Shown piece after piece: positions 512-35,277 of a DNA stretch of 35,277 bases. A program made the position numbers and the translations under genes. The notes beneath the pieces were generated by a model, which had not been told where the DNA came from, searched no databases, and saw nothing but the letters and a program-made list of their open reading frames with translations. This stretch comes from a virus (Duplodnaviria > Heunggongvirae > Uroviricota > Caudoviricetes): the IMG/VR virus record IMGVR_UViG_651053023_000020; one strand, given 5' to 3'. Numbering within the stretch: the first letter of the stretch is position 1; every line of letters begins with the position of its first letter.

Positions 512-930
512 TTGTTGTTCATGTCTGAGAGATAGGGTGCCACTTCAGCCAACCTTAGCAACCGATTGACGGGGGATTGCTCCCCCGTCGCGGTTTCCTT
601 ACTGCTTACACTGTAAGAACGCCGCAAACTCCGCTCCCCAAAAGCTCATCCGTATTTCACACAGCGAACCGTGCAGCATCCAGATGATGAGGATTACCGT
701 CACGCAGAACGTGATGGCCGTAAGCGATTTTTGCGACATAGCGCTTGCTCCTTTGTTGGAGAGGCGCTAACCTATCACTTGCTTAAGGTAGATATGTTAG
801 GGCCTCGGTTAAACAGAAATGTTTTCCGGGGCCTTTCCACATCTGGCCTTCGGGTATTCCCTCCGACCATCAGCCGAAAGGCACCCGCGCGTAATCTATC
901 GCTTTTTTGTTACTCCGGCAATTCTGCCTG

Positions 931-23067: not shown

Positions 23068-24113
23068 TGAGCAGAAAAAATAAAAAAGTGCGCATGAGTT
23101 CACGCATTGATCTCGCTGATGCGCTCAGGAAAGAATCATCGCTCAGTGCATTCACATTTGATGGTCCTTATCGCCTGACCGGGCATGACCTGCTGGACAA
23201 TATGTACTGTGCTGATAACGGGCGGTGGTATGAAACCCCGGTGGACTGGTACGGTCTGGCAAGAGCCGCCCGGCAAACGTCCTGGCATCAGTCTGCGCTT
23301 TACTTTAAGCGCAATGTATTGCTCGGTTGCTACATCCCGCACCCGCTGCTTTCCCGGCAGGATTTCTCGGCGCTGGCGCTGGACTGGTTTGTGTTCGGTA
23401 ACGCATTCCTTGAGCTTCGAAGCAATATGCTCGGCGAACCGCTTAAATTACGGCACGCCCTGGCGAAATACATGCGACGCGGAAGCGATCTTGAATCATG
23501 GTGGTATGTGCAGGATGGCAAGGATGCGTTTCAGTTTCGCCCTGGCAAAGTGTGCCACCTGATGAATCCGGATATTAACCAGGAAATCTACGGCATGCCG
23601 GAATATCTTGGCGCATTACTCTCGGCCAGCCTTTCTCATTCGGCGGACATGTTCAGAAAACTGTACTACGACAACGGATCCCACGCCGGGTGCATCATCT
23701 ACATCGGTGCAGCGCAGGTAAACCGCGAAAGCATGGACTCCCTGAAAGAAACGTTACAGGGTGCGCGTGGTGGTGGTGCATTTAAAAACGTGCTCATTCA
23801 TGCGCCCAACGGGGGCAAAGAAGGTGTGCAAATTTTGCCGTTCCAGCAGATCACCGCAAAGGATGAGTTCATGAATGTTAAGGCGGCATCCCGTGATGAT
23901 GTACTGGCTGCGCACCGCGTTCCGCCGCAACTGATGGGGGCGATGCCGGGTGAAAAAAGTGCGTTTGGTGATGTGGAGAAGGCCGCGCGGGTTTACGCAA
24001 TTAACGAGCTGATGCCCGTCATGGAGGCCATGAAGCACATCAATGACTGGCTTGGCGAAGAGGTGATCCGCTTTAACCCTTACGCACTGTTAGACACCCA
24101 GCCCACATCCTGA
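23067..24113 (+). CDS. Q: portal protein gpQ
   Basis: 348 aa, start overlaps P stop (TGATG). Confidence 0.9.
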   Translation: MSRKNKKVRMSSRIDLADALRKESSLSAFTFDGPYRLTGHDLLDNMYCADNGRWYETPVDWYGLARAARQTSWHQSALYFKRNVLLGCYIPHPLLSRQDFSALALDWFVFGNAFLELRSNMLGEPLKLRHALAKYMRRGSDLESWWYVQDGKDAFQFRPGKVCHLMNPDINQEIYGMPEYLGALLSASLSHSADMFRKLYYDNGSHAGCIIYIGAAQVNRESMDSLKETLQGARGGGAFKNVLIHAPNGGKEGVQILPFQQITAKDEFMNVKAASRDDVLAAHRVPPQLMGAMPGEKSAFGDVEKAARVYAINELMPVMEAMKHINDWLGEEVIRFNPYALLDTQPTS

Positions 24114-24130
24114 CGCGCTTCGCTTGTCTG

Positions 24131-24153
24131 CTGCTTCGCCGGGGCATAAAAAA
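24131..24153. other. stable hairpin immediately downstream of Q (no clear U-tract)
   Basis: GGGGCATAAA-AAA-TTTATGCCCC inverted repeat. Confidence 0.4.
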
Positions 24154-24409
24154 TTTATGCCCCGACTCTCCAGCTCCTGTATCAATCAGATAATTTCACG
24201 ATGCTTTTCTGCTGATTGCCATCATCGACAGTCAGACTCTTACGCAATCCCACCGCGTTGACTGCATGTTCTCGCCGTCTCAGTGCGATTTTGACGGCCT
24301 TACCTAAATCAAAAGCCCTCACGTCTTTTTCACGCTCAGCGTGAGAAATACAGCCATTCTGTTGTATCTCTGCGACATCGTTCAGGGAATGCTATTTACC
24401 CCCTGAAAC

Positions 24410-24440
24410 GCGGGCTGTTCCCCCGTCACCCGCGCGCAAC
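24410..24440. other. candidate cos region
   Basis: Expected location next to Q; G/C-rich tract gctgttcccccgtcacccgcgcgc loosely resembles the reverse complement of the P2-type cohesive end as I recall it; not an exact match. Confidence 0.3.
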
Positions 24441-24592
24441 AAAAACGCGTTTTTTGTGCACGCACGGATCCTTGACGGATCCAGCCGCCATGCGGGCCGG
24501 AAGGGTAAAAAGTCGTTCAAAAAAATTGTGCAAATTTGTGCACTATTGTGCAGCAGGGCGATGTGTGATTATCGCCCTGGTTTGTCGTGGAT

Positions 24593-25132
24593 CTAATTAT
24601 CTTCTGTCTCCTGCCACGAGACTTTTCCGCCTGCCTTTATGATGGCTTGCTCAACATCCCGTTCGTATCGCAAAGGCTGGAATACGCCGTTAATGAAATA
24701 CTCCTTTGGGTCCGGGATCGATACGGTAAATTTGTCATTCTCTGGTTTTGGTATTGGTGAGACTGGATGCTCGTTTTTGGCAAGTTTTTTTATGACTCCC
24801 TCGTATTTTTCTTTTGTACATTGCATCGCCTCTTCAAAAGAAAGCGCTTTGTTACGCATTAACACGGCGTACTTTAGTGCATCCTGTGCTTTCTGGAATT
24901 TAAGTGCATAGTCCGTGGCGATTTTTTCCAGTTCAGCAGCCCGCCTTCGAAGCCCTTCAATCTCACCATTGCGGGCGATGAGGTTGCAGCACATTCTTTC
25001 ATTCTCATCCAGCAACACCAGCACAACCGATGGTGTCACCTGTTCATGGAAAATATCCGCATCATATCCCCAGTCATCATGTATTGCCTGCTCTGCCGCT
25101 TCACGCAGTGCCTGATAGTCAATCTTGCTCAT
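24593..25132 (-). CDS. Ead/Ea22-like protein (function unknown)
   Basis: N-terminal IDYQALREAAEQA motif typical of Ea22-like proteins; last gene of accessory operon. Confidence 0.5.
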   Translation of the reverse strand: MSKIDYQALREAAEQAIHDDWGYDADIFHEQVTPSVVLVLLDENERMCCNLIARNGEIEGLRRRAAELEKIATDYALKFQKAQDALKYAVLMRNKALSFEEAMQCTKEKYEGVIKKLAKNEHPVSPIPKPENDKFTVSIPDPKEYFINGVFQPLRYERDVEQAIIKAGGKVSWQETEDN

Positions 25133-25653
25133 TGGATGACTCCTTTGTGTTGCGTCAGCTCTTCCTGTGCCTGCATCATGCGATTGACCTGAACGCGTGT
25201 GCGTCGAACGGAAAAAACAAACAGATTCAAAAGGCGGCGCATCTCTTTGTCCTCATGTCGCGCATGACGGATAAAGGTAAGTCGGTAGAACTCGGATTCG
25301 GCAGCGCGTTGAATCAACGACAGATCAAAGTGAAGTGCTGGTCTGGTGCATTTTGCGCATCTGGCGGCAAGCTCTGGCATCAATCTCTTAACGAAGGTGT
25401 TTTGTACTGCTTTGTTGAGTTGTGTCTGCATCCAAATCGCAAATTTCAGCGAACGCATGAGCCGGATCGCGTCGGGCAACGGCAGATAGATCATGCTGGC
25501 GGTTTTGGGTAGCGGATGAATCATTTTCACGGAGACGCGATCGCGCAGTGTTCGAAAAATCGTGTTCCCGACAACAGACTCCACGGAGACAGGGCAGGGG
25601 GCCAGACCAACCCGCAACGCGTTCGTCATGAACAGATATTCATCTTTTTTCAT
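25129..25653 (-). CDS. hypothetical protein (accessory operon)
   Basis: ORF 25129-25719; preferred start ATG 25653 with AAGGA SD (174 aa); stop overlaps Ea22-like start; no family recognised. Confidence 0.5.
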   Translation of the reverse strand: MKKDEYLFMTNALRVGLAPCPVSVESVVGNTIFRTLRDRVSVKMIHPLPKTASMIYLPLPDAIRLMRSLKFAIWMQTQLNKAVQNTFVKRLMPELAARCAKCTRPALHFDLSLIQRAAESEFYRLTFIRHARHEDKEMRRLLNLFVFSVRRTRVQVNRMMQAQEELTQHKGVIQ

Positions 25654-25719
25654 CGTGTTTTCCTTAGTGCGGGGGCGACAGTGCGCCCCGATAAAATTAA
25701 AAGCCGTCAAATTCGTCAT

Positions 25720-26052
25720 TCATCTTCCTGCTCCCTGCGTTCCTTGTTCTTCTCGGATAACGCTGTTGCACACTTCCACACACTCGTCGCAGATGAAAAC
25801 GTCGTCCCCGGCAATTAACTTTTTGATGGCGTGCTGTGGTTTCTTGCAGAAGCTGCAATAAAGCGTTTGCCTGATAGATACGGATGATGTGTAGGATGTC
25901 AGCCTCGCGATGTCGTTCTTGCGGCGCAACATCACACGGCAGCACTCAACCAGTTTCTCCGGGGCGATTTCTTCCTCTGTGGCGAGCGCCTCCAGTCGTT
26001 CGAGTATGTTGAAGGCTTTTTCCTCGGTAATTGCAGAATGCGATGTGGTCAT
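25720..26052 (-). CDS. protein with C-terminal ClpX-type C4 zinc-finger (ZBD) domain
   Basis: [39 protein letters not shown] closely matches the ClpX N-terminal zinc-binding domain; start at ATG 26052 with AAGGAG SD. Confidence 0.65.
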
Positions 26053-26063
26053 CTCTTTCTCCT

Positions 26064-26264
26064 TCAAAGTTCAGTGTGCTGACAGAGGTGTCCTTTGCGA
26101 CAGACCAGGACGCTTCCCTTACTTGAGTCGGTGATTGTCACCGTGCCGTCATCGCACTGGACAACGATGACGGTGTTGCTCTTTTCCGTTGCGCAGTTCG
26201 GCGTGGTTGAATGCGCCAACGGAATGAAAAACAGCGAAAAAAGTAATGTCAGTCTTTTCATCAT
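26064..26264 (-). CDS. small secreted protein with signal peptide and four Cys
   Basis: [19 protein letters not shown] signal-peptide-like N-terminus; 66 aa; tightly linked upstream of the ZBD gene. Confidence 0.45.
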
Positions 26265-26338
26265 GGATGCCTCATGCTTACTGTTCTGAAGGCATGACTT
26301 ACTAAATAAAACTGTCCGTCATGCCTTATCACGTCTCC

Positions 26339-26650
26339 TTATTCGGGGAATAACGCCCTGATGTTTGCGGCCATCTGGCTGGTTGGCTGCGCCTCTGGCG
26401 CAGCCTGTGCTTTGGTTTTTTCCTCCCTGACCTGTGTCACGGGTAACGCCTCATCGTCAGCCCATGCAGCCAGTCGGTAAGCCTCTGCCGGATTCATTTT
26501 CAGAAGTGCCAGCCCGGCCAGAAAAGCCACACGTTGGCCGCTTTTGCGGGCTTCTGGTGTAAGGCTGTCCAGCCAGGCGCATGCTTCGCCTTCGTTCTTG
26601 ACGGCGGCGGGCTTCAGATAGAAACTTATCCGTCTGGTTGGTGTCGTCAT
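26339..26650 (-). CDS. ParR-like centromere-binding protein (StbB-like)
   Basis: RRISFYLKP...WLDSL...AFLAGLAL pattern resembles R1 ParR N-terminal RHH region; ATG 26650 with AAGGAG SD, 5 nt after ParM-like stop. Confidence 0.55.
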   Translation of the reverse strand: MTTPTRRISFYLKPAAVKNEGEACAWLDSLTPEARKSGQRVAFLAGLALLKMNPAEAYRLAAWADDEALPVTQVREEKTKAQAAPEAQPTSQMAANIRALFPE

Positions 26651-26654
26651 TGGT

Positions 26655-27614
26655 TTACTCCTTGTCCATTGCGTACAGCCCATTAACCAGAGCAAACTGT
26701 GGCACCCCGTCCGCGATGAAAGTCGCATTAACTCCGCAGGCTTCGCGGATAGCGGGTGCCACAATCTCCGCCCCGCCACCGACAACCATCACCCGCCCGT
26801 AACCCGAAAAACCCGCCAGCGCGCGGATCACGCGTTGTTTCAGTGTTTCTTCCTTTTCACGAATAACCGCCATCAGGCTGTCGTAATGCGCGTCATTGTG
26901 GATGTGCTGGCGCAGCCAGGCTTCATCGTGGCGATGTTCGATAATGGTATTGGCGATATGGTGACTGGTACGCATACCGTTAGTGGCCATCACCGACAGT
27001 ACGGCATCGGCCATCAGGGAAACGCCTACGTGTGGATCGCAAAACACCTGGCTGATACCTGCCAGTTGTCCCTGGACCTTTGCCACATCCAGCGTGGTTC
27101 CGCCTAAATCCACAATCAGCAGGGATTCAAACGGACTCATGTCAGCCAGTGCCTTAAAGCCAGCCGGAATGGATTCAGGCATAACCCGCACGTTACGGAT
27201 AGTGAATGCTTCGCCGTTCTGGTACTCCACCGGGCGCATAACGTTCGCTTTTTTGCGGTTGATGTTGGCCATGTCCGGCTGTGCGTTTGTGTCGAAATAC
27301 TCGCTCAGTGGCAGGGTGACAACCACATCCACCTCCTGTGGTGTGATGCCTGATTTGACCAGCGCGTGGTGAATGGCGATTACATTCACATCGCTGTACT
27401 GGTATTGCGTGTCGGTCGTCTGGACAAAGCGATCGCTGACCGGATCAAAACCATAGCGCACGCCATCAAGCATGTAGTTCGCAGGCTGCGAGCCACCGAA
27501 CGGCGCAGACCATTCCGACTTGAAGCTGTTCGGGCTGATGGCGTTGCGGCGTTCGCTGTTCTCAGTCCATGCCAGCTTGATGTTGGTGGAGCCGTCGTCG
27601 ATACAAATTTTCAT
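26655..27614 (-). CDS. ParM/StbA-like actin-family segregation ATPase
   Basis: IDDGSTNIKLAW, SPNSFK, YQYSDVNVIAIHHAL, MPESIPAG, LLIVDLGGTTLD, VMVVGGGAE and LVNGLY motifs match plasmid R1 ParM as recalled. Confidence 0.75.
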   Translation of the reverse strand: MKICIDDGSTNIKLAWTENSERRNAISPNSFKSEWSAPFGGSQPANYMLDGVRYGFDPVSDRFVQTTDTQYQYSDVNVIAIHHALVKSGITPQEVDVVVTLPLSEYFDTNAQPDMANINRKKANVMRPVEYQNGEAFTIRNVRVMPESIPAGFKALADMSPFESLLIVDLGGTTLDVAKVQGQLAGISQVFCDPHVGVSLMADAVLSVMATNGMRTSHHIANTIIEHRHDEAWLRQHIHNDAHYDSLMAVIREKEETLKQRVIRALAGFSGYGRVMVVGGGAEIVAPAIREACGVNATFIADGVPQFALVNGLYAMDKE

Positions 27615-27646
27615 GTCGCTTTTCCTTATGTTGATTAATTAATCGA

Positions 27647-27755
27647 TTACGGGATTCTGAAATCCCGTTTTTGCCTGTTTTGTGCGCGCTTCATATATCG
27701 CTGCGCGTTTTTTGCTCATTTACGGGATTCGTGAGTCCCGTTTCTGTCTGTTTTT
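27647..27755. repeat. two about 36-bp direct repeats each containing a hairpin (candidate parC-like centromere/operator)
   Basis: ttacgggattctgaaatcccgtttttgcctgtttt (27647-27682) and ttacgggattcgtgagtcccgtttctgtctgtttt (27719-27755); second copy overlaps the 3' end of gene A. Confidence 0.5.
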
Positions 27756-30512
27756 GTTTCCGCTGGTCAGGCCACCCCGCAGCAGGTCTGCTTTGCGGCG
27801 GGCGCGTTCAGTGGTTTCACTGATTCTCTGTGCGTGCTCTGCGTCGCGGATGGCGCGCAGCATGTCAGAAAGCACGGTAACGGGTGTTTTCATGGTGTTC
27901 TGGTCCTGCTGAAGTGTGGATGCCAGGCGTGCGGCGGCTTCAGGGTCTGATGCCCCCAGCTGTGCCAGATAGCTGGCGGCCGGGTTATGGCGGATCTCCG
28001 TGCTGCTTACGCCGTGATTACGGCTCAGGCGCTGCCAGAGCTGCGTGATTCGGCTGTCCGGGCGGGTATCCGGTTTGCGTACAATTTCAAATCCCTGCGG
28101 TGCAATGATGCTGCCGTCAACGTACAGACTGCCGCCCCGTAACAGGTGCTGCATCTGTTGTTCACCGATATGCAGGCCGAGAGATTCAGCAGACTCCCGC
28201 CATTCTTTAGCGAGTAACTCGTGGTTATCAGGCAAAGGCCGCTGCTGTTTGCGGCTCTGTGTCCAGTTCTGCATTTCATCGCTGCTGTTTTTTGCCTGTT
28301 TGTCACGAAGCGAACGCATCAGCGCCCGGCGTTCGTGCCGTTTCAGTGAGCGCATCCATTCATTTACTTCAACGCCGTCAGGAAGCTGCGGCCACGGTGC
28401 TGGCCGTTCTTCCGGCTGTTCTGTCCCGTTGTTGCCTGTTTCCTGTACACGGGGACAGTTATTGCCACGAGTCCAAGGGGCGGTAGGGCCGCCCTGAAGG
28501 TCAAAACCATTTTCGCGGGCGCTGTCTTCCGCTTCCGGTTTACGTCTTACCAGCTTCCAGTTATCCGGGTGCGTGCACACGCGGGAAGACTCCCCGATGA
28601 GCGGCGACCAGATCCCGTAAATCTGTACACTCTGCTCGCCGTAATCGTTCAGCTCATCTGCGAGGTCGTAGGCGGTGCGAATCAGGTAGTCTTTACGTGG
28701 AACAAGTACGCCGCCCTGTTTTTCAATGTAGGAGGCAAAACACCCGGCATCAGCGGCAGCGAGTACCGCATCCATTGCATCATCCTTCAGCCGTTGCGGG
28801 CCTTCCGGGTTGCGTGCCATCTGGCTGGCAAGGCGGCGGAGTTCACGCCATACCTGACGGGAGGGGATGCCAAAGAACTGGAACTGGCGGACCCGATGAA
28901 GACGCGCCCAGCCAATGGCGCGCTCCACGCTCTCGGCCATTGATTTTCCGGTTTCGTGGTCAACGCGTGGCTTGCCCGTTTTCGGGTCGATGCCATCTAC
29001 GGCGCGGCTGTCCAGGTTTTTTCCGATGTAGGTCGCGATATAGCTGGTTGGTGTGCCTTTTGAGCCGTCGACATACTCCGCCTTAAAGCGCGGAGTAATA
29101 TCATCGCCCAGTTCGTGACGATCTTCCTGAATGGCAATATCGCGGGTGATGGCCACGATGCTGTCGATTTCTTCCGGATGAGCAAAGACCATCATATGCC
29201 AGTGCACGGTGCCGTCATGGTGAGGCTCCACCGTGCGGATGCCATACCAGCGCAGGCCGTCGCGGTTCAGTTTTTTGCGGACCGCCGCAAAAAACGTGTT
29301 AACCAGGTAATCGCTGGAGTCGCGCATGGTGGCCCCGTTCCATTTGGGGTTCGGATGACCGTTCTCCGTTGTTGCGTGGTATTTTGACGGGCAGGTGACA
29401 GTCAGAAACACCGCTTTGTCACCACGGGCTTCGGCCAGAAGTTCCAGCCCCTTCATGGTGGCCATCATTTCTGCCTTACGGTGAACCGGGTTACTTACTC
29501 CCGCGTAATACACTGTCTCGAGATCAATCGTGAACCCGTCTTCATTTTCCAGCATGAAACTTTTCAGGAAATCGCGTGTTTTCTCGCGCTGTGCGCGAAA
29601 CTCGCTTAACGCGTCCTGGCTCAGATAGGGCGATGTTTTTCTGGAAACCAGACAGGCGGCGCGGAGTTGTTCTTCTCTCCACTCGCAACGTAACAGCCAC
29701 AGTTTGCGTTTCCACCATTCTGCACAGGTCAGGCGAAGGATTGCGCCCGGCAGCAGCTCCGTGTCCGGTTCGTTCCTCCGGTCTTTGTCTGTTGTCAGTG
29801 CGTCATAATGTGGAGGCATGGCGTGCAGGTGTAACGCCATGCGGGCCAGCATCTGATACGCCTTCAGCGTTACATCCATGGTCAGTTCGCCATCGGTCGC
29901 GCCAAAGCCATCGCAGAGTTTTTCGAAGGTGCTGCTGAACATCGCCGCCGTCATGGTGGCCAGTGTCTGTATCTGGTGTTTGTTGAGCTGCGGCAGGTAA
30001 AGCAAATCGTCCAGGCGTTCGCGTCCGGCAAGGGAGCGATAACCCTGTGTCAGCCAGCGGTGATCGGTGCGCTCCAGACGTTCGAATATTTTGCGCAGGT
30101 TTCCGCGCGCGTAGCGTTCAGCCTGCCAGCTCTTTTTGCCTTTCTGACGATCGGCTTCCTGTTTTTTGCGCAGGAAGGAGAGGTGGCGAATAAGCGGATC
30201 GCGCAGATAGGACGGCAGCAGGCGCAGCGAGGCCATGGCTTCATCCACCGCGCCGCGTGCCTGTTTTCTGGCATCTCCTGCCAGTGTGATGGTTTTGTCC
30301 TGTTTTTCCTGTGCGTCCAGGCTTTTATTAATCAGGTTGCCCAGCGGCGTTGCGGAGAACGCCGCATCAGCCATTTCCTGGCGGCGCTCGTTCTCTACCC
30401 GGTAGGCATCCAGCCAGGAGGAAAGCGCGGATTCAGGAGCGGGGATCCCCGTTCCTTCACGCCCCACTGCGTGGCGCGGTTGTTGCCAGTCCCTGATGTA
30501 CTCTGCCGTCAT
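27720..30512 (-). CDS. A: replication initiation protein gpA (rolling-circle endonuclease)
   Basis: 930-aa ORF with HUH-like GTVHWHMMVF and YIATYIGKN motifs; noticeably longer than the P2 A length I recall. Confidence 0.85.
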   Translation of the reverse strand: MTAEYIRDWQQPRHAVGREGTGIPAPESALSSWLDAYRVENERRQEMADAAFSATPLGNLINKSLDAQEKQDKTITLAGDARKQARGAVDEAMASLRLLPSYLRDPLIRHLSFLRKKQEADRQKGKKSWQAERYARGNLRKIFERLERTDHRWLTQGYRSLAGRERLDDLLYLPQLNKHQIQTLATMTAAMFSSTFEKLCDGFGATDGELTMDVTLKAYQMLARMALHLHAMPPHYDALTTDKDRRNEPDTELLPGAILRLTCAEWWKRKLWLLRCEWREEQLRAACLVSRKTSPYLSQDALSEFRAQREKTRDFLKSFMLENEDGFTIDLETVYYAGVSNPVHRKAEMMATMKGLELLAEARGDKAVFLTVTCPSKYHATTENGHPNPKWNGATMRDSSDYLVNTFFAAVRKKLNRDGLRWYGIRTVEPHHDGTVHWHMMVFAHPEEIDSIVAITRDIAIQEDRHELGDDITPRFKAEYVDGSKGTPTSYIATYIGKNLDSRAVDGIDPKTGKPRVDHETGKSMAESVERAIGWARLHRVRQFQFFGIPSRQVWRELRRLASQMARNPEGPQRLKDDAMDAVLAAADAGCFASYIEKQGGVLVPRKDYLIRTAYDLADELNDYGEQSVQIYGIWSPLIGESSRVCTHPDNWKLVRRKPEAEDSARENGFDLQGGPTAPWTRGNNCPRVQETGNNGTEQPEERPAPWPQLPDGVEVNEWMRSLKRHERRALMRSLRDKQAKNSSDEMQNWTQSRKQQRPLPDNHELLAKEWRESAESLGLHIGEQQMQHLLRGGSLYVDGSIIAPQGFEIVRKPDTRPDSRITQLWQRLSRNHGVSSTEIRHNPAASYLAQLGASDPEAAARLASTLQQDQNTMKTPVTVLSDMLRAIRDAEHAQRISETTERARRKADLLRGGLTSGNKNRQKRDSRIP

Positions 30513-31187: not shown

Positions 31188-31368
31188 GGTGTTTGGCCTC
31201 TTCGTTTGTGAGTTTTTGGATACTCACCAACCAGAGTTGAGAATCTCGGGGTGGCGAGACGTACGGGGTTCTCAACACCGGCAAACGAAGAAACCGGCCC
31301 GACCGAAGTCGGCCCCGTACGCCCCACCATAATTCTGATGCGAAAAAGACGTGGCAATACAGTACGCA

Positions 31369-31389
31369 CAAAAAAACCGCTGGCGCGGT
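31369..31389 (-). terminator. intrinsic terminator-like hairpin inside early operon
   Basis: Minus strand reads AACCGC-GCCA-GCGGTT followed by TTTTTTT. Confidence 0.5.
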
Positions 31390-31512
31390 TGTGCGCTTCG
31401 TTTGTCAGCAGGTTGAGAATCCCGGCACCCGTTTTATGAGGTGCAGCGGAAATGTAACCTGACTGATTGCGGTATGGCAAGCGGTTTTTTTGTGTGTGCA
31501 TGTTCTGGTTTC

Positions 31513-34215: not shown

Positions 34216-34281
34216 CGGTTCACCAGGCATTTATTTCCCAGAGCTGTGATCAAGATGATGTTTTCATTGGAGGGCTTCCTT

Positions 34282-35277
34282 ATGTCGATTAAGAAGCTCG
34301 CTAATGGCAAATTTTGTGTGGACGTGCGGCCAGCTGGATCAGAAGGAAAGAGATTCAGGCGGCGATTTGATACTCGTGGTGAGGCTGTTTTGTATGAGCG
34401 TCATGTATTGCAGCATTACCACGACAAAGATTGGGTTGATAAGCCAACAGAACGGCGCTCGCTGAGGGAGTTGCTGGATTGTTGGTGGCTATACCACGGG
34501 AAAAATCATCCTTACGGTGCGATGGAGCGAGTGCGTATTTCTGCGGTCATTAGTGATCTTGAAAGTATTAATGTTACACGCAGTGACCAACTTACTCGTA
34601 AGAACATAATTAATTATCGGTTATTGTTGCTTAATCGCGGAATAAAACAATCCACGGTTAATCGTTATTGCGCAATGATGAGTGGTTTCTTCACAAAACT
34701 AATTGACGCAGAGGAATATTCTGGGGCTAATCCGTTTCATGATGTGAAAAAACTTAATATCAAACAGCCTGAAATGGCTTATTTGTATCATGAAGATATT
34801 CCACGATTACTGGAGTTGTTATCTGGTGATGAATTAAAAGCCGTCTTGTTGTGTCTGGCAACAGGTGGAAGATGGAGTGAGGTTGCAAATATCAAGGGGG
34901 AGCATGTTATTAGCGGCAAAGTCATTTTTATGGAAACCAAAAATGGGAAGCGTCGCGTTATACCTATATCGTCAGAACTGGAGTGCATGATTAAAACAAA
35001 GGCCACTGGTCGTTTAATTTATCCAAGTTATGCAGCTGTCAGAGCTGCTATCAGAAAGGTGAGGCCTGATCTTCCTGAAGGGCAGTCGATACATGTTTTA
35101 CGGCATACCTTTGCCACTCACTTCATGATTAATGGTGGGAATATCATCACTTTGCAGAGAATACTTGGACATAGCACTATTCAGCAGACGATGACTTATG
35201 CCCATTTTGCACCGGATTATCTACAGGATGCTGTGCGCTTTAATCCTGTGGCTGAGTTGTCCAGATATTGCCCATAA
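34282..35277 (+). CDS. int: tyrosine integrase (P2 Int family)
   Basis: C-terminal HxLRHTFATHF...GHS...MTYAHFAPDYL catalytic region; start at ATG 34282 with GGAGGG SD; stop is last codon of window. Confidence 0.9.
   Translation: MSIKKLANGKFCVDVRPAGSEGKRFRRRFDTRGEAVLYERHVLQHYHDKDWVDKPTERRSLRELLDCWWLYHGKNHPYGAMERVRISAVISDLESINVTRSDQLTRKNIINYRLLLLNRGIKQSTVNRYCAMMSGFFTKLIDAEEYSGANPFHDVKKLNIKQPEMAYLYHEDIPRLLELLSGDELKAVLLCLATGGRWSEVANIKGEHVISGKVIFMETKNGKRRVIPISSELECMIKTKATGRLIYPSYAAVRAAIRKVRPDLPEGQSIHVLRHTFATHFMINGGNIITLQRILGHSTIQQTMTYAHFAPDYLQDAVRFNPVAELSRYCP

Follow-up and report, generated by a model that had tools for sequence, protein, structure and literature searches.

A type II partition gene pair with a candidate two-dyad centromere in P88-like phages

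The 35,277-nucleotide viral sequence IMGVR_UViG_651053023_000020 (referred to below as the window, meaning this whole stretch of DNA) represents a P88-like phage (Peduoviridae, genus Xuanwuvirus). Directly after its rolling-circle replication gene A, the phage carries a parM-parR gene pair of the type II plasmid partition family, and the two 35-nt dyad repeats upstream of parM are, as judged from their sequence, the best candidate for the centromere/operator of this pair. The two genes very probably constitute a functional ParMR module. For the full statement, namely that this is a working ParMRC-type module, that it belongs to the phage core rather than to recently acquired plasmid cargo, and that it acts on circular genomes of the replicative phase, the chances appear evenly balanced. 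This is no new class of system: the pair belongs to the type II partition family, is borne by a phage, and is unusual in its two-dyad candidate centromere.

The window is identical to a prophage of Escherichia coli UMNF18, and 14 phage records of the same element match the cassette at 94–98% DNA identity. The integrase is encoded at 34246–35277 (plus strand), and a C/Cox switch is annotated in phage P88, a relative that is 96% identical to the window; the integrative P2-like phage recognized in an earlier, sequence-only reading of this DNA (the initial annotation) is thus confirmed. P88 has a standard P2 layout, with int, C, cox, early genes, A, parM, parR, a few small genes and a convergent portal gene; the window differs from it in its cargo set and in its ParR linker variant. 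The close relatives collected from IMG/VR (80 loci at 98–100% identity) and GTDB genomes (3 loci) are too alike for conservation tests. Therefore, distant relatives were reached by protein searches and contig look-ups.

The genes have been named before. RefSeq lists their products as 'plasmid segregation protein ParM' and 'plasmid partitioning/stability family protein', and in P88 (NC_026014) gp17 and gp18 are annotated as 'plasmid segregation protein ParM' and 'partition protein', respectively. The cassette, which the initial annotation regarded as an unexpected oddity, is rather a conserved and already annotated hallmark of the P88-like genus and of wider P2-like prophages. The P88 paper describes an integrated, mitomycin-inducible prophage with attL and attR sites and leaves partition unmentioned, Magaziner et al. 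(2019) list the gene merely as a 'fitness' factor, and Pfeifer et al. (2021; PMC7969092) place P88 among candidate phage-plasmids, possibly able to exist both as an episome and in integrated form. Both the identity of the genes and the episome hypothesis were therefore public before this analysis. The cis-site architecture, the grouping of the phage-associated ParM proteins and the selection pattern described below appear to be new here, and a literature search found nothing published on the cis repeats or on the phage-associated ParM grouping of P88-like phages.

The parM and parR genes and their phage context

The parM gene (26655–27614, minus strand) encodes a 319-residue actin-fold ATPase, the filament-forming motor of type II partition. 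The product matches Pfam StbA_N (7.8e-82) and the ParM C-terminal domain (9.9e-69), the structure of R1 ParM (PDB code 1mwk; residues 2–316, E 2.8e-92) and PHROG 691 ('partition protein'). It is 46% identical to R1-type ParM in a full-length alignment of 318 residues, and the motifs IDDGSTN, MPESIPAG, DLGGTTLD and GGGAE are intact, with equivalents of D6/D7, E148 and D170 present. The full-length homology to R1 and the intact nucleotide-binding motifs are those of a type II ParM, as the initial annotation had proposed for this protein.

The parR gene (26339–26650, minus strand) encodes a 103-residue adaptor. Its ATG at 26650 lies 4 nt beyond the parM stop codon (26655–26657) and is served by the ribosome-binding site AAGGAG. 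A 148-residue open reading frame (ORF) with a TTG start, taken from a mechanical ORF list, was rejected as parR in favor of this ATG frame. The ParR-like identity suggested earlier for the gene just past parM holds: the product matches Pfam PF10784 (Plasmid_stab_B, the StbB/ParR family) at 9.3e-24, as well as PHROG 2515 ('partition protein'). ParR consists of a predicted N-terminal ribbon-helix-helix-type DNA-binding region (residues ~5–62), a variable linker (residues ~67–92) and a C-terminal tail, NIRALFPE, which is a putative ParM-binding peptide. Overall identity to R1 ParR is 25%, and the phage protein is shorter. Its domains are arranged as in R1 ParR, and the strand and helices of the N-terminus are conserved between the two. 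Columns R6, F10, P14, R35, R40, G46, A48, L49 and N96 align with the ParR proteins of R1, IncL/M and pB171, and a C-terminal KN..LFP tail is common to all of them. A profile that includes the phage ParRs matches the structure of ParR from pB171 par2 (PDB code 2JD3) with an E-value of 2.4e-15; pB171 ParR differs in that it binds arrays of short direct repeats. An AlphaFold2 model of the ParR monomer has a mean confidence (pLDDT) of 56, with helices at residues 20–61 and 90–100 and a disordered linker, and is too poor for a fold search. At the sequence level, then, the gene directly downstream of parM has both the ribbon-helix-helix N-terminus and the C-terminal peptide of a type II adaptor.

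Both genes are under purifying selection. The ratio of nonsynonymous to synonymous polymorphism (pN/pS) is 0.06 for parM (70 distinct alleles). In ParR, it is 0.14 for the N-terminal part, 0.68–0.72 for the linker (residues 67–92) and 0.05–0.19 for the tail. ParR is thus constrained at both ends and near-neutral in between, which is the pattern expected of a working adaptor. Moreover, ParR falls into at least two allele classes (103 and 104 residues) that are about 55% identical and have a hypervariable linker, while ParM remains at least 98% identical. The first 18 residues, including the predicted DNA-reading strand, are invariant in both classes, which also share the tail NI(R/Q)ALFPE and the same cis sites. 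DNA similarity to the second class stops 54 nt into parR, and crossovers inside parR appear to exchange the variable cargo located between parR and the portal gene.

Gene A (27720–30512, minus strand) lies upstream of parM in the same orientation, with a gap of 105 nt, and encodes a 930-residue P2-type rolling-circle replication endonuclease (Pfam Phage_GPA, 3.2e-131). Other than this P2-type gpA assignment, the Pfam search produced only a sub-threshold REP_ORF2-G2P match, and the P88 annotation shows no theta-type Rep. The early operon that contains gene A probably ends with parMR. A 26-residue ORF (27639–27719, minus strand) in the gap was rejected as a gene because 1-nt indels break its frame in relatives. 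Within gene A, a 32–44-nt stretch at 28447–28490 is 93–100% identical to 58 other Peduoviridae (Fels-2, SopEPhi, SEN8, many Klebsiella phages and Yersinia MLG42), while the remainder of the gene has no megablast-level match to them; this stretch is a candidate ori/nick site of gpA.

Among isolated phages, ParM homologues (E < 1e-5) are found only in the 14 P88-like records and in the phage-plasmid D6, whose StbA is 47% identical and which, in contrast to the window phage, is a P1-like obligate plasmid prophage. The gene A allele of the window is carried by the same 14 phage records and by no others. The cassette is present in 1304 of 5426 complete E. coli genomes (~24%) at a total of 1452 places, 1450 of them chromosomal and two on plasmids. 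At a coverage of at least 80%, the gene A allele is found in 1328 E. coli genomes and parMR in 1278. parMR is thus core and linked to this gene A allele, rather than cargo. Decayed copies exist beside this conserved majority: phage 503458 (NC_049341.1/CP025874.1) has a frameshifted parM, which tblastn matches in four pieces, and in one further locus (L089) gene A is split and insertion sequence elements adjoin parR. Additionally, a 226-kb contig labelled as a Firmicute, 'Vagococcus sp. WN89Y' (NZ_JBQPOM010000071.1), contains a ParM that is 97% identical in a P88-like context, and is most likely enterobacterial contamination or mislabelling.

Related ParM proteins occur in P2-like prophages of Hafnia (62% identity to the window), Plesiomonas (62%), Serratia (58%) and Enterobacter (53%), all of which have the gene order A, parM, parR, cargo, (ogr), portal. 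A Dickeya relative (48%) is located in a conjugative element. In a neighbor-joining tree, calculated without bootstrap support, all ParMs of verified P2-like context form one group, apart from the R1-type and IncL/M-type proteins. Based on the shared gene order and this grouping, the association of ParMR with P2-like replication modules is old, which points to a function specific to phages. Among plasmid ParMs, the closest reaches 52% identity, and tblastn detected no plasmid ParR except in prophage copies inside plasmid records; a recent plasmid origin of parMR was rejected on these grounds.

The repeats upstream of parM

The proximal repeat (27647–27681) and the distal repeat (27720–27754) are each 35 nt long, are 83% identical, and lie 73 nt apart from start to start, in agreement with the pair of hairpin-containing repeats first noticed upstream of parM. 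Each contains a 20-bp imperfect palindrome with the pattern GGG-N10-CCC. In the proximal repeat, the dyad ACGGGATTTCAGAATCCCGT (27649–27668), at −52 from the parM ATG, is preceded on the coding strand by AAAACAGGCAAAAAC; in the distal repeat, the dyad ACGGGACTCACGAATCCCGT (27722–27741) is at −125. The distal repeat covers the gene A stop codon (27720–27722) and the last 11 codons, so that the overlap with the end of gene A reported earlier is also borne out. A 24-nt consensus of the repeats occurs exactly twice in the 35-kb window, compared with 0.01 occurrences expected by chance. The distal and proximal repeats are candidate ParR binding sites, and would form halves 1 and 2, respectively, of the centromere/operator.

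The arrangement of the dyads extends beyond the P88 group. GGG-N10-CCC pairs are located upstream of parM at −125/−52 in the window, −128/−55 in Hafnia and −131/−59 in Plesiomonas, against a background density of 0.17 per kb. The dyad spacing of 72–73 bp (about seven helical turns) is retained in all three, although conservation of the flanks is poor. The distal dyad of Hafnia falls within another ORF, inserted between gene A and parM; therefore, the sites travel with parM rather than with gene A. The repeats occur throughout the P88 group, which is little informative because the whole region is ~95% identical. Serratia and Enterobacter have no GGG-N10-CCC dyads upstream of parM and carry other palindromes instead, while a 16-mer, ACAGGCAAAAACGGGA, is common to the proximal repeat and one Serratia locus (L094). 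The initial annotation had named loss of the repeats in relatives that keep the genes as evidence against its reading; the nearest lineages retain them, and the substitution in Serratia and Enterobacter is neutral in this respect. The DNA-reading strand of ParR is T-R-R-(I/V)-S-F-Y-L in the lineages that bear the dyads and N-R-K-I-S-F-Y-L in Serratia and Enterobacter. From these alignments, the strand motif and the site type show a small but real protein-site co-variation.

The overall organization resembles that of the R1/R100 parA locus (parC-parM-parR; StbA/StbB), which has the same gene order and its cis site upstream of parM. Both R1 parC and the phage region consist of two blocks around a core of ~38 bp, with an A/C-rich coding strand and AAAAC motifs. 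The phage core (27682–27719) is 38 nt long, has GC-rich arms around GATATAT, and occupies the position of the R1 parC promoter core. In R1-type parC, two sets of five tandem 11-bp A/C-rich iterons flank a 39-bp promoter core, and all ten iterons were recovered in an R1-type control; the phage cassette, in contrast, has two 35-nt dyad repeats around a core without a clear promoter, and is located in an integrating P2-like phage directly after a rolling-circle gene A rather than on a plasmid. The AAAAC motifs of the phage are phased at spacings of 10, 33, 30 and 10 nt, a pattern noticed after the fact that hints at weaker iterons. By sequence, the region would be a variant centromere rather than a canonical iteron array.

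A 12-bp perfect palindrome, GATTAATTAATC, occupies 27633–27644, in the interval that separates the proximal repeat from the ribosome-binding site of parM, and belongs to a ATTAATCAA box conserved in Hafnia and Plesiomonas, in which ATTAAT.AA is invariant across the three lineages; variants in relatives are GGTTAATTAATC and the symmetric double variant GGTTAATTAACC. The palindrome may be a −10 region or a second operator. A consensus promoter scan of 24000–28200 returned no site, and also misses the known promoter of the R1-type parC control; its negative result was rejected as evidence for this reason. A lenient scan recovers the R1 promoter and identifies a plausible promoter overlapping the proximal dyad in Hafnia, compared with only a 7/12 site in the window, and no convincing sigma-70 promoter was found in the 38-nt core. 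Since parMR follows gene A in the same orientation and has no convincing promoter of its own, we infer expression as part of the early replication operon, an operon under repression in the lysogenic state; the evidence leans only weakly toward such co-transcription.

The dyads could instead act as RNA or as transcription signals. Predicted RNA folds at the dyads are modestly better than those of shuffled sequences on both strands. An RNA-structure reading was rejected, as stem variants among 60 distinct relatives include no compensatory changes and the wobble-compatible changes favor opposite strands in the two hairpins; no Rfam family was called at the repeats. A second possibility is that the repeats are tandem intrinsic terminators and not a centromere. 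They would stop antisense (plus-strand) transcripts that run into parR and parM from the variable cargo or the convergent late P-Q operon, and would protect gene A. The binding site of ParR would in that case lie elsewhere, or be limited to the A-rich AAAAC motifs or the GATTAATTAATC palindrome. Both dyads do score as stem-loops followed by T-runs on the plus strand, the Serratia locus L094 likewise has two antisense terminator-like hairpins upstream of parM, and some relatives have cargo genes pointing toward parR. However, the Plesiomonas GGG-N10-CCC dyads, at the same positions, have arms of only 4 bp and no terminator call, and the stem variants show neither a consistent strand preference nor compensatory double changes. 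The site type co-varies with the DNA-reading strand of ParR, and type II centromeres sit directly upstream of parM, as the dyads do. Terminators as the sole explanation are unlikely on this evidence, and the two roles are not mutually exclusive.

Neighboring cargo, toxin and RNAs

The interval between parR and the portal gene (24114–26338) is a cargo hotspot, as seen in a comparison of four loci (L085, L094, L095 and L097). In the window, it encodes a 66-residue secreted peptide, a ClpX-zinc-finger protein (115 residues), a 196-residue orphan and an Ead/Ea22-like protein; relatives instead carry HicAB, a KAP NTPase, a DUF3800 protein or other ORFs. The 196-residue orphan has no Pfam, PHROG or PADLOC match. 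A defense-system reading of parMR or its neighbors was rejected, as there were no PADLOC matches.

A 46-residue Hok/Gef-like toxin ORF (MSQKSLTAITFCVTVILIIWMLHGSLCEIRM...) is located at 599–739 (minus strand), and its P88 equivalent is annotated as 'MokW-like host killing'. Both stability modules of R1, parMR and hok, thus have counterparts in the phage; Rfam called no sok-type RNA. Two other RNAs in the early region, near a 'derepression'-type gene, score above the Rfam gathering threshold: a C4 antisense RNA (31247–31334, minus strand; 79 bits) and the Hfq-binding small RNA isrK (31370–31444, minus strand; 62 bits). These matches suggest that an antirepressor of this P2-like phage is controlled by RNA in the manner of P1/P7 immI.

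Proposed function and alternative explanations

We propose that parMR acts on the circular, extrachromosomal phage genomes that arise once a cell is infected or a prophage is induced. Rolling-circle replication of the P2 type yields monomeric double-stranded circles, which are also the packaging substrate. ParR dimers would bind the two GGG-N10-CCC dyads via the N-terminal ribbon-helix-helix strand (T-R-R-I-S-F-Y-L in the window), and the NIRALFPE tail would capture ATP-ParM filaments at their ends. Two phage circles, each bound by ParR, would then be pushed apart as the filaments between them grow. ParR of a type II system occupies parC and silences the par promoter, and its dynamically unstable ParM filaments are capped by the ParR–parC complex; for the phage pair, the conserved dyad positions and their co-variation with the ParR strand motif support such behavior only indirectly. 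The role may be to spread or position the circles within the cell, or to give copies to both daughters before the outcome between lysis and lysogeny.

A comparable role is known for the prophage CGP3 of Corynebacterium glutamicum, in which AlpC is an actin-like filament former and AlpA its co-transcribed adaptor, which binds sites upstream of their operon; both are induced early, and the excised phage circle depends on them to replicate efficiently (PMC4446434). Both systems pair an actin-like protein with an adaptor, in an analogous gene arrangement, within an integrated prophage. The actin-like families are distant, with only a sub-threshold ALP_N match for the window ParM, and the host phylum and the phage type differ; moreover, the role in CGP3 was shown experimentally, whereas that in the window phage is one that we infer.

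Type II partition systems reside on extrachromosomal replicons, which they stabilize; almost all of the places found in E. coli (1450 of 1452) are chromosomal, inside an integrase-bearing prophage. Several points weigh against the proposal. The literature search found no experimental work on P88-type ParMR function. With regard to the cis sites, there are two candidates, with their dyads 53 bp apart, versus ten contiguous iterons in R1 parC; 18 of 85 close relatives differ by a single base (CCT) in the proximal dyad, and both strict sites are absent in two. Both dyads score as intrinsic terminators on the antisense strand, as described above. Finally, the argument that parMR has no promoter of its own is weak, given the behavior of the consensus scan on the R1 control.

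The main rival explanation is a facultative plasmid state, in which the prophage would be a low-copy episome replicated by gpA, with its inheritance secured by parMRC and the Hok-like toxin, and with integration by Int as an alternative state. This scenario would account for the strength of purifying selection on parM, given that prophages otherwise replicate passively, and for the presence of a Hok/Gef-like ORF (599–739, minus strand) alongside parMR, as in plasmid R1, and it agrees with the candidate phage-plasmid status of P88 (Pfeifer et al. 2021). Another P2-like phage, KS14, is maintained as a plasmid (PMC3091744). Moreover, a 34,461-bp circular 'plasmid' from a cat E. coli isolate in PLSDB (NZ_CP148288.1) is a complete P88-like genome with int, C, cox, A and parMR; the assembly of this strain lies outside the E. 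coli genome set. However, a 99.9% identical twin of this circle is integrated in strain Z1323HEC0067 of the same project, so the circle may be an excised or induced form. KS14, moreover, has a plasmid RepB and ParA and no gpA, whereas the window phage keeps a rolling-circle gpA and a tyrosine integrase, and P88 itself was characterized as an integrated, mitomycin-inducible prophage with attL and attR. Taken together with the near-exclusive chromosomal placement, the data reached here do not support the episomal phase put forward in the initial annotation, an idea already published for P88, and we consider a facultative plasmid state less likely than the replicative-phase role.

The initial annotation had also suggested a role in plasmid incompatibility or exclusion. 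In this case parMR would serve in conflict, by destabilization of plasmids or competing phages that share its centromere or by titration of their partition proteins. In R1, parC sites reportedly exert incompatibility (Dam and Gerdes 1994). Up to three or four related copies are co-resident in some genomes, and ParR has diversified into allele classes that are only about 55% identical. However, this variation spares the DNA-reading strand and the sites, so that no difference in specificity is expected between the allele classes. Identity to the closest plasmid ParM is only 52%, no plasmid ParR or similar centromere was detected, PADLOC returned no defense-model match, and parMR is core, outside the variable cargo. 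A conflict function is therefore very unlikely.

Returning to the proposal of a partition module that acts on replicating phage circles, a broader version is possible and is put forward here tentatively. P2-like phages of Enterobacterales may possess an ancient ParMR lineage of their own with a minimal two-dyad centromere, which would serve either as a spindle on the circles produced by rolling-circle replication or as a switch to a stable episome.

Work on ParMRC, the textbook bacterial 'mitotic spindle', has been confined almost entirely to plasmids; in the present case it is a conserved, strongly selected core pair of an integrating phage. This raises the question of why an integrating phage needs a segregation motor, whether for positioning of circles, for inheritance before integration or for a hidden plasmid state. 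As a ParR centromere, the two-dyad site would be smaller than any described, and would be useful for understanding how ParR scaffolds capture filaments. If the broader version of the proposal is correct, about a quarter of sequenced E. coli strains would carry an actin-like machine whose substrate is phage DNA rather than plasmid DNA.

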